From IMG/VR virus record IMGVR_UViG_3300042322_000140, positions 228 to 64,227 of that record: DNA of 64,000 nt. One strand, given 5' to 3'. Below are positions 9,581 through 44,889 of the stretch, piece by piece (position 1 is the stretch's first letter; each line of letters opens with the position of its first letter). The stretch is from a virus. Taxonomy: Duplodnaviria; Heunggongvirae; Uroviricota; Caudoviricetes. Under the pieces are notes generated by a model. That model did not search any database. It was not told the DNA's origin and was given only the letters and a program-made list of their open reading frames with translations. A program made the translations under genes and the position numbers.

Positions 9581-12500
9581 TTATTGACAGTTGAAATATT
9601 CATCGTCTATCTGTTTTAATTCTTCTTTAGAATAGTAATTTTTTGATGTCTTAAACACCTCTGGGCTATTTTCCAGGTATTGGTACTTGTTAAAGTTTAC
9701 ATCTGACAAAGGTTTTTCTATACCAGTTAGTTTAAAGTTAGGGTCTACTGAAGGCAGTTTGTTGTAAAACTTAACGTTCCCTGCTTCGTATATCATTTCA
9801 AAAACCCCTTGTGTTGTTCTTACAAATGTATCTGTTTCATTCTTTACAGCTAATACCCCATCTTCTATGTATCTGTAATCTCCGGATATTTTCTTAGCAC
9901 TTTCAGGATTATTTGCAAAAAACTCTCTTTGGCTTGTTTGGCTGTCATAGTCTTCAAATACTAACTCTTCTGATGTCATTCCTAAATTCAAATTCTTAGA
10001 TATTGCATCGTAGTCTGCCAAGTCTTTTTCAAATTCTAATGGGATAGACATTATTGCTTCCTCTTTAGATAAAGGGTCTTTTTCTACTAATTCTATTCCT
10101 TTTCCTGTAACCTTGAAGTACTTATTGTTTGTCTCTAGTATAAATCTATTGAAGTCTTTTACAAACTCTGTAACCAAATACTCTGGGCTAGATATTACAC
10201 TACCTAAACTATCTGTTGATACTTTTATAGGAGTCACTACTAATGGGAAGCCAAAGAACTTTTTATACAAATATATCTTAGCCAGCTTATCAGGGTCTAC
10301 TTCGTAATCTGCTACTTCAAGATTTGTTACTTCTTTTTCTACAAAGCTTCTTAAGTCTTCAATATTAGCTACTTCATCTGGTAACATTTCAGGATACTCT
10401 AGCATTGTATCGTAAAGCTCCTCTAAGCTCTGCTCCTCTGTTTGTCTATAAATATCCCCTTGCTTTTTGACTAAACCAAAATTATCAAACATTTGATACT
10501 CCGACATATCTGATTCAACAACTGTATCAAATTCATTATCTGTTTCTATTACAGCTGATTCTTCTGTGCTTGTATCAAATAACTCTTTATAAATAGTAGA
10601 GTAGTTAATTATATTTTCCTCAGTTGGTCCTGTTTCTAGTAGATTTTCCATAGCGTCTAAAAACGCAAGTATATCTTCTCTACTATGAGATAACACTTTA
10701 GTAGGAATGTCTCTTAGGTCAATACCGTTTGTCATAGCTTTCTTTTTAATAGAGGCTAATAATTTTACTACTGCATTAGGGTTTTCGTCCCAAACTTCTT
10801 CAGAAAACTCTTCGTTTATATATCTAATTTCCTCAGATAATTTAGAATTTTCTTCGTCAATCAATGTATTAGCTACAATGTTTTCTATGTCTTCTGCCTT
10901 ATCAACTAACACCCCGTCTTTTGTAACCTTTATATTAACTAATTTATGATTCTTAGCTATATTATCTACTGAAGATTTAAAGTTAGAGTCTTTTGCATAT
11001 TTATTGCTAAGATCTGGTAACAAATTATCTGAGATCTCTTCTTCAGAAATACCAGCTATATCTCTAGCTAACTCTGCTTCAACTATAAATGGGTTTGCTA
11101 TTTCTTGTTTTCCAAATATGTTTAAGCTTGTTCCAGTAAGTGTTATAAAGTTTTTATTGTATTCTATCTCAAAAGGTTCTGTATTTTTTAATTTTAAATA
11201 AGCTTCTTTTATACTTCTTTGTAAGTCTAATGAGCTCATTATTTTTGTTGCCTCATACTTATTAAACACCCCACCTCTTTGTAAAGATACTAAATTAAAA
11301 GATATAATACCAGATTTTGTAATAGCACTTTCTAATTTTTCTAAAAGCTCCGATGAAGAGTTTACTCCAAGTGCCATAGCTGCATTTCTTGCAACAACTT
11401 GGTCCTCTAATGATAAAGACTCTGTAGAATTATTTTTAAATTGCATCAAATCTTTAATCGAAGGCTCTCCGTTTTCATCATAACCATTTGGTGCAAGCTT
11501 TCTCGCTGGTCTTTGCATTTCAAAATCAGATGTCTTTTTATACCCAAGTGATGTGTAGAACTTTTCAAGTCCGGCATTAGTAGTGTTTTTATCTCTACTA
11601 GAAATAGTCAATACTGTACTTTTACCTATTGAGTCTGTGTATTTTAAAGCTGTATTAAAAGCTTCTCTTGCTCTACCCTGGCCTCTAAATTCTTCTGGTG
11701 TTTCTACCAATTCCATTTCTATTTTGCCAGTAGGTTTTTCAGTAATTGGGTTTACTTCATTTCTAAAATAAACTTTACTTCCATTTACATCTGCAACCAT
11801 TCTTTCTCCAGCACTTTTTATGTTTAGTTCAGAGACCCAAGAAGGTAATAATCCTACTTTTTGTTCTGCAAAACTCATCATATCATATACTTGGTTAGTC
11901 AAGATTTTAGCTCCCTCTGTATCACCATTTCTTCTAAGTACTCTAGCTTTATCTCTTAATTCGAAAGCTTTGTCGTTTACTCCAGAGAAATTAACCCAAG
12001 AGTTTTGACCTCTAGTCTCAGTTGTCATGGCAAGTCTAGCTAATGGAGAGTACATTCTAGAGTGTATATTCCATGCGTTTTCTTCTCCTAATGCACCAAA
12101 ACCATTTCCAAATTTAGCATGCCCAAAGAAATCGTGTACAAATCTAAATATGTCATTTGCTAATAAAGGCTCCCCATTTACATCTTTAAACTTAGTCTTT
12201 TGTAAAAGTGGGTTGTCTTTTCTTTGTTGAGCTGTTATAGCCTCATCCCCAAATCCAGACTCCGTTGAGAAAATCTTCATACGCTTATTACCACGTAAGT
12301 CAGCTATCATGTCGGCAGAGTTTTCATACGGCTCCGAATTATTTATCTCTGGTTTGTAACCATAGCTTAGTATTTTTTTATACTGGTCTACAGTCTCTTT
12401 TACCATAGCTTTGTAAGCCGCTTTTGTTTTAGTATCGTTTGGTGTAGGTTGCATCTTATCAAACTCAGCTGCTATACTTTTGCTATTTTCTTTATTTAAT

Positions 12501-15500
12501 TCCTTTATCGGTTCTATTGCATCAATGCTTATACCTTTCTCTAACATGTATTCATCAGCTATTTTTGATGCGTCCTCTAAAGGTGCATTAAATAACTTAT
12601 TACCATCTACTATAGAAAAGTTTACATAGCTGTCAGAATCATTAAATCTCTTTTTGGCTTCTTGGCTTTTCTCATATACTTCTCTAAAGTCTCCAAAATA
12701 CATATTTTTGACTCTTGCATAAGCACGTATGATATTCATACCACCAAAAGTTCCGGCATCTAAATGCACAGGTTTTCCGTCTTTTATGCCCCAATTAGCA
12801 ATATCTCCTAAATCACCATAGATTATGTCGTAGTTTAAATACTCTTCTAATCCATAGTTTTTAAGTACTTCAACCAAGTCTGGGTTTTTAGTATCAAAGT
12901 CTGCTTGACTATATCTGTATAGTTCCATAAGCATTACCTCTGCATCTTCTGTACCATATTGTTCACCATTCACTATGTTGTATATAGGAATTTGATCATT
13001 TGGTTCAAGTTGAGTTAACTTTTCAGCTATAACATAATTAAGGCCAGTTTCATAAACTTGTGGAAGGACACCTTTACTTATAAGCTCTTCATTACCTTCT
13101 TGCATGTTTTGAGCTAGTCCTCTGGCATTATTTGCTACTTTTAGCACCTTACCCTCACCTAAATCAAAAACAACTCTGTCAGAGCCTTGAGATAACTTTA
13201 CTAAGTTTGGTATATCAAATCTATCTCTTGCTACTTGGTTTACGTCATATTTATACCTAAGATAAGTACTATCTATACCTAGATTTTTTTGCATTCTGGA
13301 TCCAGATAATAATTCAGTGGCAGATGCTGATCCAAACTCTGCTAGTGTCATTGCTGATACTTGTTCAGCTGTGTAGTTTGATAACCCAACTGCTGCTTTT
13401 ATAGCACCCCAAACACTTTTTAACCACTCGCTTAAGCTTCCTTTTTTATTGCTTAACAATAATTTAGCCCCTTGATCACCTATTACTTGTGCAAGGACTT
13501 CATTATTAAACTCTTCTGAACCTTCTTCTAGATCTGGTTGTGTGTTTTTTACAATATCTATGTATTGTTGAGCTTCTTCTTTATTTTTTTCAACAAGAGA
13601 TAGTCCAGATTTATATATGTCTTCTCTGTTTTCTTTTAGCCAATCTAGATGTAAATGTCCAAATTCATGTATTGGTGTATCTAACCCCATTACATCGTTG
13701 TTCAAGTACACATCTCCTCTATAAGTAAAACCTGCAGTACTTAGTTTTATACCTTTTTCTAATAACTGTTTGCTAAATTTAATATCTTTGTTTATAGGCT
13801 CAACTAAAGTTTTATCTTTTATTGCAAATACAATTTGTCCTTTGTTACCTATATCTTCTCCTTTTATAATTTTTGCATTTTCTACTTCTTTTATAAAAGC
13901 GTCAAGTTCTTCTTTAGGTAATTCTATTCCTTCTGCTAGTAAAGAGTATCTAATTCTAGTTTTCCACTCTTTTAAATCAGATAGATTGTCTTGGTGAACT
14001 GTTAATAAACCTTGGCCAAAACCTACTTTTTCTACTCCCCATCTTTTATTCCAATTATCTAGGTCTAAAATATCTGGGCTTTTGATTTTAAATTCTTCTA
14101 TATTTCTACCAAAAACTCCGGCATATTTTTTTTGTACAGCAAAGTATTGTGTACCTTTATAGTTTGAATCAAACTCTCCATTTATGCCTCTGTATACTGC
14201 AGGTAAAGATTCTATTTTATATTCTCTTATTAAAGCTGCTGCTTCTTCTTTTACTTCTTGTTCTGTTGAGTTTTCTGATAAGTATACCTCTAAATATGAA
14301 CCATCCACTAAATTAACTTCCCAGAAGTCTTCTTCTGTGTTAAAAAATAAAGAGTCTACATCTTCTTGTGACATAGTTACTTGCTTAGCTATTTTTGAAT
14401 CTAAACCAAGGTTTACTAACTTAGCCTCTATCTGAGAGTTAGTCATTTGGAATACATTATTAGCTAACCCACTTAGTTCTAGCTTAGATATAATCTCTTG
14501 TGTTATCTCATTCTTAGAAGTCTCACTCAAGCTTTTAGAAAACATAGGTATAGACGACTTTAACTCAGAACGCATCTTATTTGTTATCTCAATATAAGGC
14601 TGTTCTGCTAAAGTCAGTTTGTCTGCGTTTATTTCTTGTGGTACATATTTTTCAAAATACTTTCTAGCTCCCCCTGCTGTGTTATCTAAGTCTGAATTAG
14701 ATAGTGTTTCTTCATCAACATACTCTACAAATTCTCCATTAACTCTTAAAACAAATCCATCCTCTTCTTCTGTAATTTCTACATTAGATTTTTCTGCAAA
14801 GTTAACTGTTTCTAATTTAGCATCTTTGTCAAATCTTTGAGCTTCTTTTTGTGCTACTTTTGTTACAATATTGTCATAGAAAGATTTCATACCTTCTCCA
14901 CCTACTTCTAGGTCTAAGCCTGAGTACTCTTTACCTTGACCAGTTGACTTTAAGTCTCTTATTTCATCTAAGTCATTTACTACTTTTTTTGCAAACTCTT
15001 TCCCAAAAAAAGATTCTAATTCTGCATCATCTCTTACACCTTTTGCACTTAAAATTTTACCGTCTTTTTTTACCTCGGCATTATATTTAAACAAACTACT
15101 TCCAGCATAGCTTATCTCTATAGCATCTACTTGATTAGATAAACTATACATACTAGAAGATTGCTGTCCTGTAGCAAAAGCTACACCACTGTACCCCTCT
15201 TGTGCTGCCATTTGTAAAACACGTCTTGTAGCTAAGCCAACCCATTGATCAGTATTTTTATAAGGCATTTCTTGTAAGCCAGACTGATCAATATCAATAA
15301 TATCTCTTTTTGCAGCAGCTATTTGTCTTTCTAAAGGTGTTACTTTTGAGTAGTAGTCTTGTATTACTCTAAAACCTTCTTGTTCAACACTTGGTAGATC
15401 TTCTACCCCAATAGTATTTTCAAGACTTTTTCTAAAATCTAATTCGTTTGCTCTTCTTTCTATAGTTGTATCAGCAACCTCTTTAGAGCCATAGTAGTTA

Positions 15501-16990
15501 TTTTGTCCTGATACTTGTCCATCAACATATATTCTATAATCTCCATTGTTCTCTTTTACTGCTTCTACTCCTGTAGAATCACCTAACTTTTTACCAAAAG
15601 AGTTTACAGATTTAGCTATAGTTACATTTCCATACTCATCAATATTTGTAGTATAGCCTTTACCATCATTATAAATAACTCTCTGATAAGCATCCTTATC
15701 TATTTTTTTCTCTTCTTTAATCTTTAAAAGCTCCTCTGTTAAAGCTTTATATTTAGCTAATGCTATATCATTTTTAATTTGTAATTTTCTATCAGTAAAA
15801 CCTATCTTACGACCAGCTTGTGCCCAATCAGATTGTATCTCATTTACTACCAAAACTTTATCACCATTTGGTAAACCTTTCTCGTTTAACCTTATGTGAG
15901 CCAAAATATTACCTTCATCCCAATGAGATGATTTATACTCTTCCTTAATATAAGGTGTTAAGTTATTTCCGATAGCTACTTTATCTCCAAAAATCTGGTT
16001 TATTTTTTCTATTTCTGTTCTTATTCTTGCATGTTCTTCTCTTTGTTCCTGGGTTGGTGCCTGCCCAAAGGGTATACTTAGTATAAGTTTTTTTTCAGAT
16101 ATTTTTATTGATTTATATTGCTCAATTGCAGAATTTAATTTAGTGTCTGGCATCGTCAATAATATCTCTCTATAGTTTTCTCCCCCCTTTAGTTGATAAC
16201 CTTGGTATTTTACATCTCCATCTTCTCTGTCTAATACTTCTTCAATTGCTGCTTTTTTTGCATTTTCTTGTGCACTATAATAATCAAAGTTTTCATCAAA
16301 AGTATCTTCATCTGTTAAACCTATTTGGTCTAGTGTTATATAAGGCATAATTAAATTACCTTGGCCGGAGTACTTTATGTTAAACCCATTACCGTCAAAC
16401 TCTGCGTCTAAGTCATTAATGTCTATTTCAGGCTTACCCTTACTAACATCAACAATGCTAATTTGATTTGATTTAATATAATCTTCTACAACAGAAGCTG
16501 GTATGTTACCTGCTCTAGTATTGTTTTCTGCTACATAGCTGTTTAAATAATCTGCAAGTCCTATCCACTCAAGTTCTTGATTTACATTTTTTACTCCACC
16601 ATTCTTTTGTGTGTCTGTAAGCTGTTTTAACCAACCTTGTGTGTTTTTGGGATTTAAGTCAGTCAAATTGTTGATAGCAGACAAAGCATTTGAAAAGTAA
16701 GTACTATCTGGAGCTATTCTACTAAACTTTACAGCGTCTAGATTTGTTGCTAAATCTTTTTCAGATTTAACTAAATTGTTTACTCTATTTTTTATAGATG
16801 TAACTTTTGCTTTCACCATATCCTTGAAGTCTTCAACTTCAGTCAAGGCATAAAGATTTAAGGCGGTCTTTTTATTACCGCCTGTTATATTCACTAATGT
16901 ATCAAATAATTTACTTCTACTGCCATTTGCAGCTTCCACAAAATCAATATCCCCATTCTCGTCTTTATAAATTCTACATTTTAAGCTCAT
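9581..16990 (-). CDS. Giant polyvalent virion protein B (2469 aa): EIQSD-type domain, ART-like, zincin, kinase-like, HDFFGH domain, GNAT
   Basis: Motifs ELEWIGL/GGENYREILL/EIQSDW, VYRG..YFA..YA, TPIHEFGH..NEVLA, KVLKV..YGDLGDIANWG..HLDAG, FVHDFFGH..GEENAW..ETRGQNSWVN, EFRGQG..LEKFYTSLGY. Confidence 0.75.
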   Translation of the reverse strand: MSLKCRIYKDENGDIDFVEAANGSRSKLFDTLVNITGGNKKTALNLYALTEVEDFKDMVKAKVTSIKNRVNNLVKSEKDLATNLDAVKFSRIAPDSTYFSNALSAINNLTDLNPKNTQGWLKQLTDTQKNGGVKNVNQELEWIGLADYLNSYVAENNTRAGNIPASVVEDYIKSNQISIVDVSKGKPEIDINDLDAEFDGNGFNIKYSGQGNLIMPYITLDQIGLTDEDTFDENFDYYSAQENAKKAAIEEVLDREDGDVKYQGYQLKGGENYREILLTMPDTKLNSAIEQYKSIKISEKKLILSIPFGQAPTQEQREEHARIRTEIEKINQIFGDKVAIGNNLTPYIKEEYKSSHWDEGNILAHIRLNEKGLPNGDKVLVVNEIQSDWAQAGRKIGFTDRKLQIKNDIALAKYKALTEELLKIKEEKKIDKDAYQRVIYNDGKGYTTNIDEYGNVTIAKSVNSFGKKLGDSTGVEAVKENNGDYRIYVDGQVSGQNNYYGSKEVADTTIERRANELDFRKSLENTIGVEDLPSVEQEGFRVIQDYYSKVTPLERQIAAAKRDIIDIDQSGLQEMPYKNTDQWVGLATRRVLQMAAQEGYSGVAFATGQQSSSMYSLSNQVDAIEISYAGSSLFKYNAEVKKDGKILSAKGVRDDAELESFFGKEFAKKVVNDLDEIRDLKSTGQGKEYSGLDLEVGGEGMKSFYDNIVTKVAQKEAQRFDKDAKLETVNFAEKSNVEITEEEDGFVLRVNGEFVEYVDEETLSNSDLDNTAGGARKYFEKYVPQEINADKLTLAEQPYIEITNKMRSELKSSIPMFSKSLSETSKNEITQEIISKLELSGLANNVFQMTNSQIEAKLVNLGLDSKIAKQVTMSQEDVDSLFFNTEEDFWEVNLVDGSYLEVYLSENSTEQEVKEEAAALIREYKIESLPAVYRGINGEFDSNYKGTQYFAVQKKYAGVFGRNIEEFKIKSPDILDLDNWNKRWGVEKVGFGQGLLTVHQDNLSDLKEWKTRIRYSLLAEGIELPKEELDAFIKEVENAKIIKGEDIGNKGQIVFAIKDKTLVEPINKDIKFSKQLLEKGIKLSTAGFTYRGDVYLNNDVMGLDTPIHEFGHLHLDWLKENREDIYKSGLSLVEKNKEEAQQYIDIVKNTQPDLEEGSEEFNNEVLAQVIGDQGAKLLLSNKKGSLSEWLKSVWGAIKAAVGLSNYTAEQVSAMTLAEFGSASATELLSGSRMQKNLGIDSTYLRYKYDVNQVARDRFDIPNLVKLSQGSDRVVFDLGEGKVLKVANNARGLAQNMQEGNEELISKGVLPQVYETGLNYVIAEKLTQLEPNDQIPIYNIVNGEQYGTEDAEVMLMELYRYSQADFDTKNPDLVEVLKNYGLEEYLNYDIIYGDLGDIANWGIKDGKPVHLDAGTFGGMNIIRAYARVKNMYFGDFREVYEKSQEAKKRFNDSDSYVNFSIVDGNKLFNAPLEDASKIADEYMLEKGISIDAIEPIKELNKENSKSIAAEFDKMQPTPNDTKTKAAYKAMVKETVDQYKKILSYGYKPEINNSEPYENSADMIADLRGNKRMKIFSTESGFGDEAITAQQRKDNPLLQKTKFKDVNGEPLLANDIFRFVHDFFGHAKFGNGFGALGEENAWNIHSRMYSPLARLAMTTETRGQNSWVNFSGVNDKAFELRDKARVLRRNGDTEGAKILTNQVYDMMSFAEQKVGLLPSWVSELNIKSAGERMVADVNGSKVYFRNEVNPITEKPTGKIEMELVETPEEFRGQGRAREAFNTALKYTDSIGKSTVLTISSRDKNTTNAGLEKFYTSLGYKKTSDFEMQRPARKLAPNGYDENGEPSIKDLMQFKNNSTESLSLEDQVVARNAAMALGVNSSSELLEKLESAITKSGIISFNLVSLQRGGVFNKYEATKIMSSLDLQRSIKEAYLKLKNTEPFEIEYNKNFITLTGTSLNIFGKQEIANPFIVEAELARDIAGISEEEISDNLLPDLSNKYAKDSNFKSSVDNIAKNHKLVNIKVTKDGVLVDKAEDIENIVANTLIDEENSKLSEEIRYINEEFSEEVWDENPNAVVKLLASIKKKAMTNGIDLRDIPTKVLSHSREDILAFLDAMENLLETGPTEENIINYSTIYKELFDTSTEESAVIETDNEFDTVVESDMSEYQMFDNFGLVKKQGDIYRQTEEQSLEELYDTMLEYPEMLPDEVANIEDLRSFVEKEVTNLEVADYEVDPDKLAKIYLYKKFFGFPLVVTPIKVSTDSLGSVISSPEYLVTEFVKDFNRFILETNNKYFKVTGKGIELVEKDPLSKEEAIMSIPLEFEKDLADYDAISKNLNLGMTSEELVFEDYDSQTSQREFFANNPESAKKISGDYRYIEDGVLAVKNETDTFVRTTQGVFEMIYEAGNVKFYNKLPSVDPNFKLTGIEKPLSDVNFNKYQYLENSPEVFKTSKNYYSKEELKQIDDEYFNCQ

Positions 16991-25326: not shown

Positions 25327-27435
25327 TTATTTTTTCTTCTTAAATCTACCACCAAACTTACCTACAGTAGTTTTTTCTTTAGCTTTTTTCTCTGCCTCCG
25401 TAGCATTTACGTTAGTTATACCATATGGATTTATTAAGCTATCTACTTGTCCTGCATAATCTTTTTGCGTTTCCGGTTTATAATTTATCCTGTATGTACC
25501 ATCGCCTTGTAGCTGTACTTGTTTGTTTAATGCGTTTTGTGCATTTGCACTAGCTACTGCGTCCCAATTAGTATACTGATCATTAAACCTAGTGTTTCTA
25601 AGATTTTGCCAATCGTTTTCATAATTAGCTAAACCTTTGTATGTTCTAGCTTCATAACTCAATGCATTTTGGTTTTCTGCCATTTGTTCAGCATCACCTA
25701 TCTTAGCATTGTAAATATCTGCTGTATTTTGTGCTTGATTATTGAATCTATTTGCCTCTGTTATTGCACTTCCTGCAGCTGCACCTTGATTTGCTGTTAG
25801 GCCTATATTTGCTGCTGCTCTTTGTGCGTCAGACATTCCAGATAAATTCTGTTGTGCTGCTACTACTGCTCTATCTGTCTCCATTATTTTTTGTGTTGGA
25901 GATATATAGTTAGGTTCTATTCTATTTAACCTAGTAGCAACTTTTAAAGCTGGATTTAATGTAGGTGTTTGGTAGATTCTTTGTGGTAAACTAAGAAAAT
26001 CATAGTTCACAGTTCTACTTAAATCTAAACCTGGTGGATCTTTTGGTGTTTCTTTAATTGGTTCTTGTTTAACATTAAACTGATTAATTGCATAATCTGC
26101 GTTAGTTTCCCCAACTTGTTTTTCTACATCTGTAACATTCTTTAAACTCTCTGTTGACAATTTATCTCTTAGAGGTGATGTTTTTAATTGTCTTAATGTA
26201 AATATACCGTTATCATTTAAGAACTTCTTATCTTCAGGTGTTACTAGATTCATACCCATAGAGTATCTACCTGATGTAAATTGTCCAAGTTTTGAATCAA
26301 ATCCTCTAGCTATTTCTTTTTCATTAAATGTTTGATTAGTCAAGTAATCTTGTGCTTGTTTTACAGCATCCTCTCCATAAACACTTGCGTTACTTATTAT
26401 GTTTTGTGCAGAAGCCGCCATTCTATCATTCATTTTTGATTGAAGTGAGCCTATTACTTTTTGTTGAGTGTTTAACTTAACATTATTTTTGAACTTTAGA
26501 TTACCTCTATTATCAATCTCTACATTCTCTTTAAGAGTGTCGTCTGAGTAAACTAAATCTGGGAAGTTTCTATAAAGTTGTTGTAATGCTTCTTGTGCAC
26601 TTTCTACATCTCCATAAGCTTCTACTCCTGTTTTTTGTTTCTCTCTTTTTCTAGTACTAAATTTATTTTCTCCTAGTGCAGTTTTTTTCTCTCCTGTTAT
26701 TGTTTTTTTGAACTTTCCTGCAGTTTGGTATTTAGGTAAGTCTTTTAATAATTTAGCTGCTTTTTCTTCGCTTATGCCATACTTATTTGCTAATTCAACA
26801 ATACCTCCATTTTCCATTTTATAATCTGTAGAGTCTTTTTCTTTACTCTCTTCTTGTATTTGGAACATTATATTAAACATCATTTCTCTATCTTTTTCGA
26901 TAGGTTTTTTACTTTGTGCTTGTTTATATAATTGTTTTGATAAGTAGTCTGAATTAAGGTCAGAAGTCTTTTTATCTTTAATTTTTAACTTTTGGTCTTT
27001 CATCATGCCCATTAGTTTTTCTAATTCTGCATTTATTTTATCAAGACCTGTTTTTGAATTAAATCTATCTAGTATTTTGGCGTAAGTGTCTGTAGCTTTT
27101 GCTGGTAACCCTAGCTCTTTATTTACTTTTCTAGCAACATCTGCTCCAATTTTTAAATGGTCACTTAATATTCTAGTACCGTCCTCTAGTGCTACTGGCA
27201 TACCTCCTTTTTCGTGAGTTTTACCTTGGGCTTTTCTTATACCTTGTGAATCAAATATGTATTCTCCACCTTCAATTTCAGCGTTTGGTTCTACCATAGG
27301 TTTCTTACTATCTAAGGCAAACTGGTATTCCCCAGTAAGTGCCTTGAACAAATCTTTCTTCTGGCCACCTTCTGCAAAGAATAGGTTTTCAAAAACTTCT
27401 TTTGGTATTGATATTTTATTCGAACTCGACATCAT
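25327..27435 (-). CDS. Virion cargo protein (702 aa), crAss-like cargo type
   Basis: NAEIEGGE...GKTHEKGG...GTRILSDHLK motif; Q/N/A-rich C-terminal helix; basic tail KFGGRFKKKK. Confidence 0.55.
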   Translation of the reverse strand: MMSSSNKISIPKEVFENLFFAEGGQKKDLFKALTGEYQFALDSKKPMVEPNAEIEGGEYIFDSQGIRKAQGKTHEKGGMPVALEDGTRILSDHLKIGADVARKVNKELGLPAKATDTYAKILDRFNSKTGLDKINAELEKLMGMMKDQKLKIKDKKTSDLNSDYLSKQLYKQAQSKKPIEKDREMMFNIMFQIQEESKEKDSTDYKMENGGIVELANKYGISEEKAAKLLKDLPKYQTAGKFKKTITGEKKTALGENKFSTRKREKQKTGVEAYGDVESAQEALQQLYRNFPDLVYSDDTLKENVEIDNRGNLKFKNNVKLNTQQKVIGSLQSKMNDRMAASAQNIISNASVYGEDAVKQAQDYLTNQTFNEKEIARGFDSKLGQFTSGRYSMGMNLVTPEDKKFLNDNGIFTLRQLKTSPLRDKLSTESLKNVTDVEKQVGETNADYAINQFNVKQEPIKETPKDPPGLDLSRTVNYDFLSLPQRIYQTPTLNPALKVATRLNRIEPNYISPTQKIMETDRAVVAAQQNLSGMSDAQRAAANIGLTANQGAAAGSAITEANRFNNQAQNTADIYNAKIGDAEQMAENQNALSYEARTYKGLANYENDWQNLRNTRFNDQYTNWDAVASANAQNALNKQVQLQGDGTYRINYKPETQKDYAGQVDSLINPYGITNVNATEAEKKAKEKTTVGKFGGRFKKKK

Positions 27436-30268
27436 AGTTTCCTGTTTTTTTATTGTATGTATAGTTTTTTATTGTCTTACCTTTCATCATAGATAAATAC
27501 TCTCCACCATTTTTCATCATTGGCTGACCTTCTTCTGGACCTTCCATTTCTGTTTCTCCTCCTTGTATCTCTTGTAATAACTCTTGTATCATCTGTATTG
27601 CCTGTTCTTCTGGCATACCCATTTGTACTAATTGTTGTAAGATTTGCTTAGGATCAGCTCCTTGTTTCAAAGCTTGTTCTACTTGTGATTCAATTTGTTC
27701 CATGTTTGGAGTTTCTCCTTCTGCACCTTCATTTTCACCTTCCATTTGTTCATCCATCATCTCTCCACCTTCTTGGTAACTTCCTTGGTACCCTAGTTGC
27801 ATACCTGCTTTGTTATTTTCATACCAGTTTGGTTTTTTATTTTGAACCATTCTAGACATAGTGGCTAAGTTCCCAGATCCTACATTAGCTAAGTTTGAAC
27901 TGTATTTTTTATTTTGTTGTTCTTTAAAAAGTTGATCCATAGCGGATAGGTTTCCAGAGCCCACTTTAGCTAAGTTTGCAGCGTATTGTGAATCTTTCAT
28001 ATCTTGATTATCTTTTTCAGCTTTGGCTATAGCCTCTCTGTAATCTCCACCTTCTTGGTAGTAACCGCCTTTCCTTAGCTGTGGTGTTCCTTGTGGTGCT
28101 TCTTGTTGACCACCTTGCATTTGCTCCATAACCATTTGGATTACTTGCGTAGCTTGCTCTTCTGGAATACCTGCTTGTACTAATTGTTGTAGTATTTCTT
28201 GAGGGTCTGCCCCTTGTTGTAACATACCTGCAACTTGTTGTACTATAGCTTGCATTTGATCTCCTCCTGCTTGCTCTTCTTGTGGATTACCCATCATCAT
28301 TTGCCCTCCTTCTATTTCTGGTTGCATACCTCCGTCTTGGTAACCTAACATTTTAGGAGCAGCTTGCCCTAATCTTTGTGTTCCTTGAGTGATAAAACCT
28401 GCGGCTCTAGGTGCAGCAGCTTCTCCAATACCTATAGGCATTGCTTCAAATGTTGTGTAAGGAGATGCAGATAATACTGCAGCAGCATTAAGTGTAGCTT
28501 TAGGTACTAGCTTTAATCCCATCTTAGTTTTATTTTTTAATTTTTCAGATGCAGATAATGTAGGATTGTACCTATTAGCCATTACTTGTTTTCTGTATCC
28601 TTCAGATGTTTCACTTTCTGGAGTATTTGGATTAAGCCATGCTTTAAAATCTCCGAAAGCTTTGCTAGGATTAGCCATGTAATATAAAGGTAGTTCAAGA
28701 CCTAATTGATCATCATATTCTGCTTGAGATCTCTTAGCATCTAATTCTCTTTGGTAGCTACCTCTTGTGTCTTGTTTAAGCTCTGGACCTTTAGGTCTTT
28801 TAGACATATCATATCCTTTAGACTTCCAAAAATCTTCAAGTGTCATTGATTTTTCAGCAGGTGCTACTTTTGCTTTTGCTTTAGGTGTAGCTTTACGCTG
28901 TACCGGTTTAGGTGTTGTAGCAACTGGTGCCTTTCTTAAATTCTCTTTTTTAAACTTCTCACTTTTTAGTTCTGATAAAAGTTTTGTATTATCTTTTGAT
29001 GATCCATCTGTATAACCTAATCTCTTAGCTTCAGACCATGGCATACCTGTTTTTTCTACCCAAGTATCTCTGGCTGAACCTTCATCATACGATGTCTTAG
29101 CTGCACTTTCAGTTTTTGGTACAGATTTGTATCCTTCAGCTTCAAGTTGATTTTTAAACCCGTAGTATGTGTCTTTGTCCATACCTTCTTCATACCAATC
29201 TGTGGCAACTTTTGGCTCTTCCTGTGGACCAAATACTGGGTTTCTAGCTGCTATTTCTGCTTCTACTCTAGCTGAATTTGGGTACTTGTTGATCATATCA
29301 TCTTCGTAACCCATTTCCTCTTCCCCACCTTCTTGGTAATAACCACCATACCTATTCATTTCAAGCGGTCTATCTTCCCCTGTCATGTTTTTTCTTTGCT
29401 CTTCAGCATAATCCTTCATGACTTGATTTTGTCTTTTTTGAGCACCCATTCCTTGTAAGAAAGATTTTGTACCTTTCAATAAAGAGAGTGCTGCACCCCC
29501 AACAGTGGCTCCTATATTTCCATTGGCTGCACTCTTACCAGTAAAAGTAAGTGCATCATCTAAGCCCACGTCTCCATAAGGGTTTACAAATTGAGTTGTA
29601 CCCATTCCTGGAGTTTCTACTTTTTTTCTAGCTGCAGCTCCTCCATCGTCAGTTGGTTTTAGTTGCTCATCTTCTGTAGACATACCCATGTACATTTTAT
29701 TGTAATCAGGTTTGTCAGTACCTAAAGCGTTACTTTGTGCTTCTTGTGTCGGAGATTGTCCAAAATTAGTTTGCATCCCAGCTGGATTATTCTGATACCA
29801 GTTAGGTGTAGGTGTTGGTGAAGCTTTAGGCAATGGTTGGCCATATTGATCTAACTCTGCAGTTCCTGCAAATTGATATTTTGGTAATTGCGTACCACCC
29901 ATTTCATGCTTTTGGTTCCACATAGAGTAAGCAATTGCTATTGCCTGTTTTTGTGGACGGCCCTCTTTCATCAAGATTCCTATTTTTTCACTAATCCAAT
30001 CTTGTTTCATACCACCATCTTTATAAGCTTTAGTTTCCGCTACATAGCTTGCCCCTCCAAATTTGTAGTCTTGGCCTGGCTCCATATATGTAGGTTCATC
30101 CATTGCCATACCATTCTGGTCTAATGGTTGACCATATAATGGATATGGTGTGTTTCTCATTGTTATGTCTTCACTAGGTATATAGTTTATTGGATTACTT
30201 TCAGAAGCATATCCAGGAGTATAACCTGTGTTGTTTATAAGCTTAGATGTTTTTTTGTATTTTCTCAT
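27416..30268 (-). CDS. Modular low-complexity virion cargo protein (950 aa) with repeated YQxGG motifs
   Basis: Six [YF][QK]xGG motifs, duplicated QGADP modules, KQAIAIAYS module, one hydrophobic segment. Confidence 0.6.
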   Translation of the reverse strand: MRKYKKTSKLINNTGYTPGYASESNPINYIPSEDITMRNTPYPLYGQPLDQNGMAMDEPTYMEPGQDYKFGGASYVAETKAYKDGGMKQDWISEKIGILMKEGRPQKQAIAIAYSMWNQKHEMGGTQLPKYQFAGTAELDQYGQPLPKASPTPTPNWYQNNPAGMQTNFGQSPTQEAQSNALGTDKPDYNKMYMGMSTEDEQLKPTDDGGAAARKKVETPGMGTTQFVNPYGDVGLDDALTFTGKSAANGNIGATVGGAALSLLKGTKSFLQGMGAQKRQNQVMKDYAEEQRKNMTGEDRPLEMNRYGGYYQEGGEEEMGYEDDMINKYPNSARVEAEIAARNPVFGPQEEPKVATDWYEEGMDKDTYYGFKNQLEAEGYKSVPKTESAAKTSYDEGSARDTWVEKTGMPWSEAKRLGYTDGSSKDNTKLLSELKSEKFKKENLRKAPVATTPKPVQRKATPKAKAKVAPAEKSMTLEDFWKSKGYDMSKRPKGPELKQDTRGSYQRELDAKRSQAEYDDQLGLELPLYYMANPSKAFGDFKAWLNPNTPESETSEGYRKQVMANRYNPTLSASEKLKNKTKMGLKLVPKATLNAAAVLSASPYTTFEAMPIGIGEAAAPRAAGFITQGTQRLGQAAPKMLGYQDGGMQPEIEGGQMMMGNPQEEQAGGDQMQAIVQQVAGMLQQGADPQEILQQLVQAGIPEEQATQVIQMVMEQMQGGQQEAPQGTPQLRKGGYYQEGGDYREAIAKAEKDNQDMKDSQYAANLAKVGSGNLSAMDQLFKEQQNKKYSSNLANVGSGNLATMSRMVQNKKPNWYENNKAGMQLGYQGSYQEGGEMMDEQMEGENEGAEGETPNMEQIESQVEQALKQGADPKQILQQLVQMGMPEEQAIQMIQELLQEIQGGETEMEGPEEGQPMMKNGGEYLSMMKGKTIKNYTYNKKTGNYDVEFE

Positions 30269-30284
30269 TATATTTTTATTAATT

Positions 30285-32483
30285 TTATTTTCTACTAAAT
30301 AACTTTCTTCCTAAAAACTCTGCATCTTTTCTATTTTTTGAGTCTATAACTATAGTTGTATCTCCTTTTTTAAACCTATCTGTTAAATAATTAATATCCG
30401 GTTTTCTACAGTTAACACAGCCATAGCTAGCATATCTATTTTTTGCCTCTTGTGAGTATAGTGGATTTCTGTTCTTAAAATCATATGTTACATGCAATGC
30501 TACGTCTTTTGATTTTGGTGCTGGTTGTCCAAAAGCTGGTATAGGGTTTATCCTAAAACCTGGTTCTCCATATATATCAGCTTTAGGGTCCATTACATAT
30601 GCACCTACAGGTGTTCCCCTAGATTCTGGGTGTGTTTCTAAATAGTGAACGCCCCTATTATTAACGTTTTGATCCGGGTTTAAGGCTGTTAATACTGGAA
30701 ATGTTCTTGTCACTACTCCATCTTCTACTACATAACTAGTATTACTTCTCTTATCTGTAATAACTCCATTTTGTAGGTTTTGAGTGTTCCCAATATTACC
30801 TGTTATAAAATCATTAAATATATCTAACCCACTTCTATTTGATAAAGGACTCCTGTTTTCTTTATTTAATTTGTTAACTGTTTTGGTATCATTTTTAGCC
30901 TTTCTTATAGGTGCAGCAACAGATTTTTTAGTTACAGGTGGTTTTCTATCCCATAGTGGGTTAATAGGCACTTGAGGAAAAAACTCATTAGTATTTTCTG
31001 TATCCATTTTTTTATTACTTTTTATTTTAAAATTTTTGTCTTTTAGTTGGCTTAGTAACTCTATATTAGAATCTCTTGAGCCGTCTGTATAACCTAATCT
31101 CTTAGCTTCAGACCAAGGGAGTCCTGTTTTTTCTACCCAGTTATCTCTTGCTGAGTTATGGTCAAAATTACCCCCTTCTTGGAATTGTTCTTGAGGAAAC
31201 ATTATGTTTTGTTTTTTTTCCACTGCTGGATGTCTTGTAGTTCTTTCCCATTCATCTGCTTCTTGCCATGTTTTAAAAGGGCCTCCTAAGTGCTCTCCTG
31301 TTTTTTTAAATTCTTCAATAGGATCTGCTAATGGTTTACCATATTTAAAACTAGGAATCAAATAAGCTGGTTCTCCATTTTCTCCACCTATAGACATAGC
31401 TAATTCAGAACTAGGTTCAGCATAAGGTATTCTATACCCTTCTGGTAACTTTTCGCTAGTTGGTTGTAAGAAAGTTAGACTTCTGCCGCCAGTTTGGTAT
31501 TTTGACACCTTGGTTACACTTTTGCCTGTACTTTGTCCACCACATTTATGGCAGTTATACATATCTTTTTCCGTAGATTCAGATTTGTCCCATGACCAAC
31601 CACAGTTAGTACACTCTACTTCTCCTTCTATCTCTCCCCCATCTTTGTAAGCTGGCTCTTGTGGTATTTGGTTTTGGAGTTGCTCGTATTGTATAGCTTC
31701 GTAATTAGGTAATTCTATCTGTGGTACTTGGTAAAACGATGAGTCTAATCCGCTATCTTGTTGTTGTTGTTGTTGAATTTGCTGTTGTTGCTCTTCTTGT
31801 TTTTGTCTTAAGGCTGTAGCTTGGTTTTGTTTAGTTTGTAATTCTGCTAAAAAATCTTTTTCTTTTTGTTTTTGTAATAGCTCTGCCTTTGCTTGCTGTG
31901 CTTCTATTTCTTCTTTAGTAGTACCTATCTCTGGAGCTGTTATGTTTGCTCCTGGATCTGTAAATAAATTCATTGACATATCTGATTCATCCTCGTAATC
32001 ATAGTTTTCAGATGCAGATGGTTTTAGACTCATTTTTTTAGATAGCCAATTTTTTACAAAACCTACGCTTTTACCTTGTACAAAAGGATTATCATGTATT
32101 GCTCTAGTTGACATTACATCTGAAATTGGTCTGTTATCTGCTGTTTTATACAATTTTTTATAACCAACAGCCCCTAAAAAATGAGCCCCATACAAATCTG
32201 CATGGGTTGGCTCTATACCTAAGTTTTTTTTAAGGTAGCTTATATTACTATTAGTAAATCTAACAGCTGCTTCTTGCTGTAGTTTTGTATTAAATCTGTC
32301 TTTCCAGTCATAGCCTAAGCCTGTCCATGTATCCTTTGTAAACTGGTAAAGTCCAGATGCACTTCCAAATGGGTTTTCTGCATACTTCTTCCCTGCACTT
32401 TCTGAACCCCTTACTTTTGCAAAGTAGTTTGTCAAATCGTTTTCAAGTTTTTTTACTTTCCCTGTTTTATCTTCTATGTACAT
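30285..32483 (-). CDS. Virion cargo protein: N-terminal lytic transglycosylase, Zn-ribbon, C-terminal L,D-transpeptidase (YkuD-like)
   Basis: GSES..ASGLYQFT..TW..YGAHFLG (lysozyme-like/SLT); CTNC..CHKC; ALH-x21-SYGCVN. Confidence 0.75.
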   Translation of the reverse strand: MYIEDKTGKVKKLENDLTNYFAKVRGSESAGKKYAENPFGSASGLYQFTKDTWTGLGYDWKDRFNTKLQQEAAVRFTNSNISYLKKNLGIEPTHADLYGAHFLGAVGYKKLYKTADNRPISDVMSTRAIHDNPFVQGKSVGFVKNWLSKKMSLKPSASENYDYEDESDMSMNLFTDPGANITAPEIGTTKEEIEAQQAKAELLQKQKEKDFLAELQTKQNQATALRQKQEEQQQQIQQQQQQDSGLDSSFYQVPQIELPNYEAIQYEQLQNQIPQEPAYKDGGEIEGEVECTNCGWSWDKSESTEKDMYNCHKCGGQSTGKSVTKVSKYQTGGRSLTFLQPTSEKLPEGYRIPYAEPSSELAMSIGGENGEPAYLIPSFKYGKPLADPIEEFKKTGEHLGGPFKTWQEADEWERTTRHPAVEKKQNIMFPQEQFQEGGNFDHNSARDNWVEKTGLPWSEAKRLGYTDGSRDSNIELLSQLKDKNFKIKSNKKMDTENTNEFFPQVPINPLWDRKPPVTKKSVAAPIRKAKNDTKTVNKLNKENRSPLSNRSGLDIFNDFITGNIGNTQNLQNGVITDKRSNTSYVVEDGVVTRTFPVLTALNPDQNVNNRGVHYLETHPESRGTPVGAYVMDPKADIYGEPGFRINPIPAFGQPAPKSKDVALHVTYDFKNRNPLYSQEAKNRYASYGCVNCRKPDINYLTDRFKKGDTTIVIDSKNRKDAEFLGRKLFSRK

Positions 32484-42664: not shown

Positions 42665-43528
42665 TTATAAGTTAGGAAACATTCTTTCGAATCTGTTTGT
42701 CTCTTGGATCATTTTCATCTTTAGCTTATCCTGCCAGTTTCTCCCAAGACCTTCGAATTTAACCTGCGTCATTGCAAGCCCAAAGTATTCTCTTTCTTGT
42801 TGTTTTATATAAGTTAGTTTATTTATTAGATTAACATCATCGTCATTCATCCATAAACCCTCTAATATTTTTCTCTTTACAAAGTACATCAAGTACTCTT
42901 GTAAACTTACTACATCCGGTATATAAAGGTCCCCAGTTTCGTCTGATGGGATTGCGTTATACTGCATGTATATGTGGCCCTTCTTAAAGTTAGCTTGTAT
43001 CTTATTGCCAAGGATGTTTATTTCATGCTCTGCAGAGTTTGTAAGCTGCTTTTGTAGGTTCTTGCAACCTGGACTGCAATATTCTTTTTTTATGCCCTTA
43101 GTAAGCTTTAAAATAATTGGGTTTGTATATCTAAAGTTTATAACAGTATTGTTATAGTACTTTTTCTCAATGATTTCTTTATAGCTTGTCTTTGTATGTG
43201 AATTAGATTGATTATCCCAAGTATAGGTATTCTCTATCTTTTGTGTGTAGTATTGTGAATCTTGTACGTCTTGTCTTGTACCTTTTTCAAACTCGTGGCT
43301 ATCTTCTGTACATTTTACAGCTAAGTGTAAACTCCAAAAATCTTCTGGTAAATCAACTTGGCCATTCTCTACTTCTAATACTTTTTCTGTAAGTGTAGTA
43401 ATGTTAGCACCAAATCTTTTTAGTTCACTTTTTATCCATAGATTAACTGACCTATAATCTATAAGTCCAGCTTCATCATATTGTCTTAGGTCTGAAAGTA
43501 TTTCTGCTATTAGCTGCTTTCTAGTCAT
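42665..43528 (-). CDS. Tail tubular/ring protein (crAss-like)
   Basis: 287 aa directly upstream of the muzzle gene, as in crAss-like gene order; ring-protein-like size. Confidence 0.55.
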   Translation of the reverse strand: MTRKQLIAEILSDLRQYDEAGLIDYRSVNLWIKSELKRFGANITTLTEKVLEVENGQVDLPEDFWSLHLAVKCTEDSHEFEKGTRQDVQDSQYYTQKIENTYTWDNQSNSHTKTSYKEIIEKKYYNNTVINFRYTNPIILKLTKGIKKEYCSPGCKNLQKQLTNSAEHEINILGNKIQANFKKGHIYMQYNAIPSDETGDLYIPDVVSLQEYLMYFVKRKILEGLWMNDDDVNLINKLTYIKQQEREYFGLAMTQVKFEGLGRNWQDKLKMKMIQETNRFERMFPNL

Positions 43529-44082: not shown

Positions 44083-44751
44083 CTATTTCTCGTTATTGTT
44101 TAGATTAGGGTTTTCGTCAGCCGGTACCTGTTTTTTCATAGCTACCTCTTTTACTGTCTCTGCTATTATCAGCTCTTCTAGTTTATCTGGTACTATAAAT
44201 TCATAGTCCCATAGGCTTTTACATCCTGGTGTACTACAAGCAGAAACATTATCAATATCATCTAAATCTAATGTTAAAAGATATAAGTTTACTATTTCTA
44301 TCTCTGTGTCGATTAGGTATAAGTACCCATCCTTTACATAATAGTTTATATAGTCTGTTCCTGATACTCTATTTTTATCCCTTCTGTATTGTGAAGGTGT
44401 AGTTGGCTTAAACTCTTTTTCTTCATCTACAGTAGTCACTTCTTTTAGTGTGCTACCATATCTGCTATAAATAAGTTTAGGCAGTTTCTTTTTTGATTTC
44501 ATTATAGAATTGCATTTTCTAAATTCTATAATATCACATTTTACAGCTTCAATTCTTTCTAATTCGAAACAATCTAGCGTTTTATAAATGTTATCTTCTC
44601 TAAATAAGCTTCTATCATTAAGTTTTTGAGATATGTAAAACATAGATTTTTGTTTACCTACATGTAGGATATATCTACGTGAAATCCTATCATCCTTAGA
44701 TAATGCGTTTAGCCCATTTATTACTCTTGATGTAAATTCTGAATTAGTCAC
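44083..44751 (-). CDS. Tail ring protein (crAss-like); probable GTG start at 44751
   Basis: YYVKDGYLYL motif. The ORF-track start (44868) runs through a terminator and a promoter, so the real start is probably GTG giving MTNSEFTSR (222 aa). Confidence 0.55.
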   Translation of the reverse strand: MTNSEFTSRVINGLNALSKDDRISRRYILHVGKQKSMFYISQKLNDRSLFREDNIYKTLDCFELERIEAVKCDIIEFRKCNSIMKSKKKLPKLIYSRYGSTLKEVTTVDEEKEFKPTTPSQYRRDKNRVSGTDYINYYVKDGYLYLIDTEIEIVNLYLLTLDLDDIDNVSACSTPGCKSLWDYEFIVPDKLEELIIAETVKEVAMKKQVPADENPNLNNNEK

Positions 44752-44771
44752 TTTTGTACGGTTTAAGTTTA

Positions 44772-44803
44772 CAAAATTAGTAAAAATTTTTATGTTTACC
44801 AAA
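44772..44803 (-). promoter_or_regulatory. Bacteroidota sigma70-type promoter for the ring/muzzle operon
   Basis: Minus strand TTTG-N20-TAATTTTG, 20 nt upstream of GTG 44751. Confidence 0.7.
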
Positions 44804-44810
44804 TTAGTTA

Positions 44811-44838
44811 AAAAAAAGAAAAGGGGCCGAAGCCCCTT
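44811..44838 (-). terminator. Intrinsic terminator with UUCG tetraloop
   Basis: Minus strand AAGGGGC-TTCG-GCCCCTT followed by TTCTTTTTTT; a second weaker hairpin AAGAGG/CCTCTT at 44855-44877. Confidence 0.85.
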
Positions 44839-44889
44839 CTCACCCAACAGAAAAAAGAGGAAAACCAAAAACCTCTTATCGTTAATATT

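Follow-up and report, generated by a model that had tools for sequence, protein, structure and literature searches.

A conserved Gly-Gly motif at module junctions of cargo proteins in a crAss-related phage, and its possible role as a processing signal

Among the phages of the human gut, crassviruses are the most abundant. In crAss001, the muzzle gene (gp44) is followed by the genes of cargo 1 (gp45, or C1), cargo 2 (gp46, or C2) and gp47-gp50 (PMC10172136). Bayfield et al. (2023) propose that gp45 is an intact chain which bridges the portal and, partly unfolded, is ejected in the N-to-C direction; their text makes no mention of cleavage, protease or scaffold (PMC10172136). Two pieces of gp45 are resolved, residues 214-245 (12 copies) in the tail-barrel wall and residues 425-552 (12 copies) on the portal wing (PMC10172136; structures PDB 7QOG chain M and 7QOI/7QOJ/7QOL/8CKB). 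Here we describe a 64-kb window, that is, the whole stretch of DNA analysed (bases 228-64227 of one 128,227-bp phage genome, IMG/VR record IMGVR_UViG_3300042322_000140), in which a short peptide ending in Gly-Gly, in its strict form [YF][QK]xGG, punctuates neighbouring cargo proteins of 732, 950 and 702 amino acids (aa).

Other systems offer comparisons as well. Polyvalent proteins of phages and conjugative elements, reportedly described by Iyer, Burroughs, Anand, de Souza and Aravind in 2017, are said to have been proposed to undergo processing via embedded peptidase domains; to our knowledge, this work describes no conserved junction peptide. Such proteins join unrelated small enzymatic or binding modules in one delivered chain and swap them as cassettes. 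The same is seen here, where a transglycosylase, a Zn-ribbon and a YkuD domain share one open reading frame (ORF) and cassettes are inserted at motif copies; unlike in polyvalent proteins, no embedded peptidase domain was identified in the 732-, 950- and 702-aa ORFs. Protease sites with Gly-Gly are also known from the adenovirus protease, which recognizes (M/L/I)xGG-x, from SUMO and ubiquitin tails and from double-glycine bacteriocin leaders. As at these sites, Gly-Gly stands here after a hydrophobic or Gln/Arg position in a flexible segment, and YQTGG resembles the SUMO tail. Relative to the adenovirus consensus, however, the hydrophobic residue is shifted one position away from Gly-Gly, and the cognate families searched for (C48, JAB, C39) were not found in the genome.

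The structural genes of the phage share ~40% identity with their counterparts in the Cellulophaga phages phi17:2 and phi4:1 (Lightbulbvirus); an epsilon crAss-like phage is a more distant relative. Tail-barrel ring proteins 1 and 2 of the crAss type are encoded, with Pfam matches to CrAss_Ring_1 and CrAss_Ring_2 at 42665-43528 and 44083-44868. On the minus strand, muzzle-like ORFs of 2411, 635 and 310 aa are followed by the 732-aa (30285-32483), 950-aa (27416-30268) and 702-aa (25327-27435) ORFs, then by an 874-aa ORF and three giants of 1859, 2469 and 1907 aa. This order parallels that of crAss001, and the 950- and 702-aa genes take the place of C1 between the muzzle and tail-barrel genes on one side and the C2 and giant cargo block on the other. 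Homologues of the 874-aa protein and of the three giants are virion proteins; for the 702-aa ORF, the homologous PHROG 36695 and phi17:2 gp041 are annotated as virion structural protein. We suggest that this marine crAss-related phage probably packs and injects the neighbouring cargo proteins.

Occurrence and conservation of the junction motif

The initial annotation listed nine strict copies, three in the 732-aa and six in the 950-aa ORF, and every one of them was found in its place, as were the variants MKNGG and YQFAG (950 aa) and FAEGG, MENGG and YQTAG (702 aa). It had also seen no strict copy in the next four large ORFs, and this holds for all of their 874+1859+2469+1907 = 7109 aa; the other window ORFs of at least 150 aa contain none either. 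Across the whole genome (ORFs of at least 80 aa, ~41,600 aa, 128,227 bp), there is one further strict copy, which is about the number expected by chance. This copy, the YQDGG of an unrelated 123-aa ORF near the DNA polymerase gene, was taken as a chance match.

Enrichment, which had been named as a check, is strong. Against 20,000 composition-preserving shuffles per ORF, the 950-aa ORF has 6 strict copies where 0.12 are expected and the 732-aa ORF 3 where 0.05 are expected, and none of the shuffles reached these numbers. Under the relaxed pattern [YFWMLIV][QKRAE]xGG, the 950-aa ORF has 8 copies versus 0.96 expected, with the giants at chance level except for the 1907-aa one. In the 732- and 950-aa ORFs together, 9 of 22 Gly-Gly pairs are preceded by [YF][QK]x. 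The conserved junction motif is real, and it is restricted to cargo genes of the C1 and lysin types, which lie between the muzzle gene and the block of giant cargo genes. No description of this motif in phages was found in the searchable literature.

Six close relatives from IMG/VR keep the motif in the three orthologous genes and, in the flanks of these genes, have it nowhere else except for one conserved WATGG in the first giant. It is further kept across 187 homologues of the 950-aa ORF. Phage phi17:2 carries four [FY]QxGG in gp041 and none in 27 other structural-module genes. From 120 homologues of the 950-aa ORF we drew 1398 distinct Gly-Gly contexts. Position -3 is Tyr in 26%, Met in 12%, Phe in 9% and Leu in 8% of them, position -2 is Gln in 28%, Lys in 14% and Arg in 11%, position -1 is Asp or Glu in 34%, and the residue after Gly-Gly is Glu, Tyr or Met. 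The consensus is a bulky hydrophobic residue (mostly Tyr or Phe), then Gln or Lys (sometimes Ala, Arg or Glu), any residue (mostly Asp or Glu) and Gly-Gly.

In an alignment of 60 sequences with a mean column identity of 26%, glycines of most motif copies are among the invariant columns. Because MENGG and YQTAG align with FQIGG and FQSGG of phi17:2 gp041, such variants are true degenerate copies. The Gly codons vary at almost every copy, so that selection acts on the protein; for the same reason, a repeat or recombination linker at the DNA level was rejected.

Models of the proteins made by AlphaFold place the motif between folded parts. In the 950-aa model, the confident modules are a beta domain (24-82), helical modules at 88-120 and 392-451 (the latter of 60 aa), three-helix modules at 669-718 and 854-902 and a C-terminal helix-hairpin (921-950). 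They are separated by segments with a predicted local distance difference test score (pLDDT) below 50, and these segments hold 7 of the 8 relaxed copies, always at module edges. The exception, YKFGG 68, is a beta-hairpin turn within the fold. The initial annotation had placed the motif at module boundaries; in the models, 11 of the 12 copies listed lie in linkers with pLDDT below 50 at edges of confident modules. The 702-aa model has a mean pLDDT of 76, and its low-confidence segments include 1-25, 200-216, 232-239 and 672-702, which are the sites of FAEGG, MENGG, YQTAG and KFGG. The three cargo proteins (732, 950 and 702 aa) are strings of small modules that fold on their own and are connected by disordered, motif-bearing linkers.

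The modules bordered by the motif are unrelated to each other: a Zn-ribbon, a 'SARD' module, a helical KQAIAIAYS module, a portal-domain-like part and a C-terminal beta module. An exhaustive search with residues 60-135 of the 950-aa ORF found the KQAIAIAYS module in 77 representative proteins. Nine of its forms are free-standing, 39-60 aa long and without the motif, and their ends match the Gly-Gly positions of the cargo proteins. In multi-module proteins, the motif stands on both flanks of the module. When KQAIAIAYS is the first unit of a large protein, a motif copy almost always comes next, and the module often follows a basic leader (8-20 aa) that has [YF]KxGG at its end. Judged from these sequences, the motif belongs to the multi-module context and not to the modules themselves.

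Comparison of relatives suggests what happens at such junctions. The break points of BLAST alignments of the 950-aa ORF cluster at residues 643, 734-740 and 921-924. Relatives have extra modules inserted between two motif copies, and in homologues the three-helix module ('QGADP') is repeated with its flanks two to five times. In the orthologues of relatives L004 and L006, different N-terminal and C-terminal sequence replaces the catalytic or binding modules. Gains and losses fall exactly at motif copies, in line with the free addition and loss of modules anticipated by the initial annotation.

The C1-type gene is a single fused gene in phi17:2 (gp041), in P0131 and P0132 and in crAss001 (gp45), and it is split in two here. 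The 950-aa ORF is the counterpart of the N-terminal part of the fused C1-type proteins phi17:2 gp041, P0131 and P0132, with no close DNA or protein match among phage records. The 702-aa ORF is homologous to the C-terminal two-thirds of phi17:2 gp041 (PHROG 36695). The 950- and 702-aa ORFs overlap by 20 nucleotides at their stop and start (27416-27435), and the overlap is conserved in the six relatives. In the fused P0131, the sequences equivalent to residue 315 of the 950-aa ORF and to residue 20 of the 702-aa ORF meet at one motif copy. What lies between these two residues here, namely 635 aa of modules, the split of the gene and the 19-aa leader of the 702-aa protein, is therefore flanked by two copies that are a single copy elsewhere. 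Since the C1 equivalent is made as two genes, covalent continuity of both parts is dispensable. The motif marks points where cassettes are inserted, deleted or split into separate genes.

Limited proteolysis and its alternatives

We hypothesize that the motif is a signal for limited proteolysis, a reading to which we would give a probability of roughly 45%. While the particle is assembled or afterwards, the chain would be cut directly at [Q/K/A]xGG or one residue upstream of it, much like the tape measure of T5. Cutting would free the enzymatic and small helical modules and strip terminal peptides. The enzyme might be a host protease or an unrecognised phage domain; a host protease is considered because cleavage of T5 tail proteins was reported to involve the host, at least by the title of Zweig & Cummings (1973, cited in PMC10038345).

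The one mapped cut in a comparable protein is that of pb2, the tape measure of T5, where it falls after R1127 (Linares et al. 2023, PMC10038345). In its sequence, AEGG directly follows this residue and is one of five GG sites in 1219 aa. The cut is thus made one residue before AEGG, and not after Gly-Gly as the initial annotation proposed. As presumed for the proteins studied here, pb2 is internal to the particle, leaves it first and acts on the envelope; its cut lies between a hydrophobic stretch and the muralytic domain, and AEGG is the core of FAEGG in the 702-aa ORF and in gp45. FAEGG, YQEGG, YKDGG and others, which stand in low-pLDDT linkers of lysin-bearing cargo, share the make-up of the pb2 site, where a residue is followed by Ala/Gln/Lys-x-Gly-Gly and the surrounding stretch of the internal, envelope-acting protein is flexible. 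Differences are that pb2 has a single copy and is the tape measure of a siphovirus. In lambda, gpH has FATGG (733-737) and YATGG (778-782) in its C-terminal part and a GG-rich C-terminus. It is in this region that gpH is trimmed to gpH*. Unlike here, gpH has only two copies and belongs to a different protein family.

A further-reaching and rather doubtful version is that a bulky residue, Ala/Gln/Lys, any residue and Gly-Gly make up a cut code shared by siphovirus tape measures (T5, lambda) and by first-out cargo of the crAss type, read by a host or unrecognised protease. C1-type and lysin-type cargo of crassviruses would then become sets of free modules, and if so, free gp45 modules would explain the presence of gp45 parts on opposite sides of the portal. 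A link of this kind to the tape measures, if true, would suggest that widely different tailed phages process their particle-internal proteins by a common activity.

Several observations weigh against proteolysis. Cleavage has been observed for none of these proteins, and the P1 residue is Arg in T5 but would be Tyr, Phe or Met here. C48 (PF02902), Prok-JAB (PF14464), C39 (PF03412) and S78/HK97-type (PF04586) proteases had no match in the genome at E <= 1, adenain (PF00770) and T4 gp21 (PF03420) not being part of the search, and no protease is recognisable in the head module. The sole clear phage protease, Peptidase_M54, is absent from the motif-bearing phi17:2 and crAss001. Tandem doublets such as GG-YY-Q-E-GG and a copy in a folded beta domain are unlike simple cut sites. 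The 19-aa leader ahead of FAEGG is conserved in the 702-aa family, which suggests that it is kept. If all copies were cut, numerous 3-10 kDa peptides would result, an unusual outcome in a podovirus. Finally, Bayfield et al. take gp45 as one portal-spanning chain (PMC10172136).

Alternatively, the proteins would stay intact and the motif would serve as a joint or handle, with a flexible Gly-Gly hinge and an aromatic or polar grip. Modules would then unfold, thread the portal and tail channel and refold singly; the motif may also dock by strand addition on 12-fold rings (portal wing, ring proteins). Processing is the single most likely function, and such an uncut hinge or handle is close behind and nearly as likely. 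The proposal of an intact, portal-spanning gp45 ejected N to C (Bayfield et al., PMC10172136) speaks for it, and so do the failure to find the C48, JAB, C39 and S78 families in the genome, the doublets, which fit avidity or hinge roles, the conserved leader ahead of FAEGG and the copy that forms a beta-hairpin turn. A plain hinge, however, needs no invariant Gly-Gly with a conserved aromatic residue at -3 and Gln or Lys at -2 across unrelated modules. Neither does this explanation fit well with a motif kept 20 aa from the new N-terminus after the gene split, or with phi17:2 gp042, a lysin of the same slot that has no copy; nor is a binding partner known. Cross-linking has been given a very small chance by us: Gln or Lys at -2 would act as isopeptide donor or acceptor, or Lys as an acceptor for YkuD, tying modules together or to host peptidoglycan. 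The frequencies at -2 (Gln 28%, Lys 14% of 1398 sites), the pairing of K-type and Q-type copies in doublets and the YkuD domain in the same gene block would suit such chemistry, but we found no domain of the transglutaminase type, position -2 can also be Ala, Arg or Glu, and crAss001 gp45 has mostly Ala-aromatic-Gly-Gly.

General loading of cargo, in which the motif would dock any bearer on the procapsid interior or a scaffold, is unlikely. Many homologues do have the motif near their ends, often past a short basic leader, and the capsid-targeting sequence of T4 is a comparable short terminal peptide. Yet it is missing from the three giants and from the 874-aa protein, whose homologues are virion proteins, and this makes a general packaging signal improbable; phi17:2 gp042, a different lysin in the 732-aa slot, lacks it too, and the copies are numerous and mostly internal. 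In crAss001, C1 is resolved at the portal and within the tail barrel rather than along the capsid wall (PMC10172136). Docking on the capsid lining as a general signal, one of the two functions offered by the initial annotation, is not supported; its polyproteins that get cut are plausible, and its picture of an enriched motif found specifically in these cargo genes, placed at the boundaries of modules and involved in their swapping stood. The motif could also be a functionless scar of repeated duplication of linker and module, and the two- to fivefold repetition of QGADP with its flanks is what one would expect of it. We disfavour such a by-product as hardly credible: the motif borders unrelated modules (Zn-ribbon, SARD, KQAIAIAYS, the portal-domain-like part, the C-terminal beta module), its glycines are invariant while linkers diverge and codons differ, and it recurs in phi17:2, in motif-like form in crAss001 gp45, and in T5 and lambda.

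Whether cut or gripped, the junction peptide is a concrete handle on how crassviruses load, store and eject protein cargo. It predicts the places where either would happen and allows cargo modules to be delimited from sequence. Presumed processing at the motif also offers an alternative to the published single-chain, portal-threaded picture of crAss001 gp45.

The slot of crAss001 gp45

Motif-like copies in gp45 are AYGG ending at 210, FAEGG at 259-263, AFGG ending at 333, AFGG at 425-428 and FAYGG at 559-563. Both resolved pieces of gp45 are bracketed by consecutive copies, and residue 425, where the portal-wing piece begins, is the Ala of AFGG. Besides the gene slot, after the muzzle and ring genes and ahead of C2 and the giants, gp45 shares with the proteins studied here a Gly-rich hydrophobic stretch, a long helical Asn/Gln-rich C-terminal part and GG with a Lys-rich tail. 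It differs in that two genes are present here and the N-terminal part is enlarged by ~635 aa of modules, and in the form of the motif, mostly Tyr-Gln/Lys-x-Gly-Gly here and mostly Ala-aromatic-Gly-Gly in gp45.

Direct comparison gave little. The PF25725 (crAss_CARG1) profile has no match in the whole genome at E <= 10, the Pfam scan of the 702-aa ORF was empty, and BLASTP of this ORF against gp45 gave E 1.5. With hhalign, 45 homologues against gp45 reached marginal similarity in the C-terminal helical part (probability 10%, E 0.0032, 68 columns). Foldseek and VIA-align searches with the 702-aa model did not return 7QOG, their lists being filled by the long helix, and Foldseek found no matches for the 950-aa model. 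The 702-aa protein, together with the 950-aa one, occupies the slot of gp45; its putative homology to gp45 rests on synteny and shared features.

We also re-analysed by peptide-mass fingerprinting the published matrix-assisted laser desorption/ionization (MALDI) peaks for bands 1-10 of the crAss001 gel (Shkoporov 2018 supplement). Recovered were gp44, gp50+gp47, gp49, gp20, gp26/gp22, gp22/gp25, gp25 and gp23. No band of at least ~60 kDa showed the 90.8-kDa gp45 above noise, and gp45 would run together with the portal. The gap hints against an intact 91-kDa species and is compatible with a cut protein, although it is far from proof.

Individual copies, modules and neighbouring genes

The 732-aa ORF (phrog_4067) holds a lytic transglycosylase (aa ~10-150), the Zn-ribbon, small modules and a YkuD L,D-transpeptidase at aa 574-713 (PF03734, E 5.9e-10). 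Its three strict copies stand between modules (all window features of this and the following paragraphs are on the minus strand): YKDGG at residue 279 (31635-31649) directly ahead of the Zn-ribbon, YQTGG at 329 (31485-31499) directly past it and FQEGG at 434 (31170-31184) directly ahead of the SARD module.

The modular 950-aa ORF has six strict and three relaxed copies. YKFGG at residue 68 (30053-30067) is the sole copy within a confidently folded domain, the beta domain, and is soon followed by YKDGG at 82 (30011-30025) in the linker ahead of the KQAIAIAYS helical module (residues 88-120, 29909-30007; phrog_2423) and by the variant YQFAG at 131 (29864-29878). YQEGG at 311 (29324-29338) is the second half of the GG-YY-Q-E-GG doublet, in which G308, G309 and Y310 are invariant among 60 homologues, and it is the joint where fused relatives run straight into the 702-type part. 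YQDGG at 643 (28328-28342) has invariant glycines and is a hot spot of BLAST break points. Next come a doublet of LRKGG and YQEGG (residues 731-741, YQEGG at 737; 28046-28078) and YQEGG at 831 (27764-27778). MKNGG at 918 (27503-27517), with M918, G921 and G922 invariant, precedes a conserved C-terminal module of 28 aa. The first copy of the three-helix QGADP module (669-718, 28115-28264; pLDDT 85-93) has GG on either side; the second (854-902) lies at 27563-27709 with pLDDT 92-94.

In addition to three internal variants, the 702-aa ORF bears a C-terminal KFGG with a basic tail. FAEGG at residue 20 (27364-27378), in which at least 90% of 45 homologues keep G23 and G24, aligns with the internal FQEGG of the fused P0131. 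MENGG at 207 (26803-26817), with G210 and G211 invariant, takes the position of FQIGG in phi17:2 gp041, and YQTAG at 236 (26716-26730) that of FQSGG. KFGG (residues 693-696, 25348-25359) is followed by a Lys-rich tail and kept in four aligned relatives.

Some modules occur more widely. Free-standing KQAIAIAYS proteins (P0137, P0146, P0148, P0166 and others) are widespread in metagenomes, and the module is also the first one of many large phage proteins. The helical 'SARD...PWSEAKRLGYTDGS' module of ~45 aa is common to the 732-aa ORF (aa 440-480, 31044-31166) and the 950-aa ORF (aa 392-451, 28916-29095, pLDDT above 90), a cassette shared by neighbouring cargo genes.

Two metallopeptidase-like sequences were considered, and neither could be tied to the motif. 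Peptidase_M54, which is not linked to the motif since phi17:2 and crAss001 lack it, is an archaemetzincin-like protein of 193 aa (E 5e-12; HExxHxxGxxHC) encoded outside the window, at 124347-124928 of the genome on the plus strand. Its gene sits between those of a DnaB-like helicase and a family-A DNA polymerase and is present in the nearest relative. The other is the single HExxH (HEFGH, residue ~1108) of the 2469-aa giant (9581-16990), a zincin-type motif without Pfam match; a zincin-like protease domain has been mentioned for the equivalent block of phi14:2 (Drobysheva et al., bioRxiv 10.1101/2020.03.07.982082). In the 1907-aa giant (3763-9486), three relaxed copies versus 0.59 expected (P 0.02) make up a marginal enrichment, and one of the three, LKEGG, occupies residues 1895-1899, 12 aa from the C-terminus.

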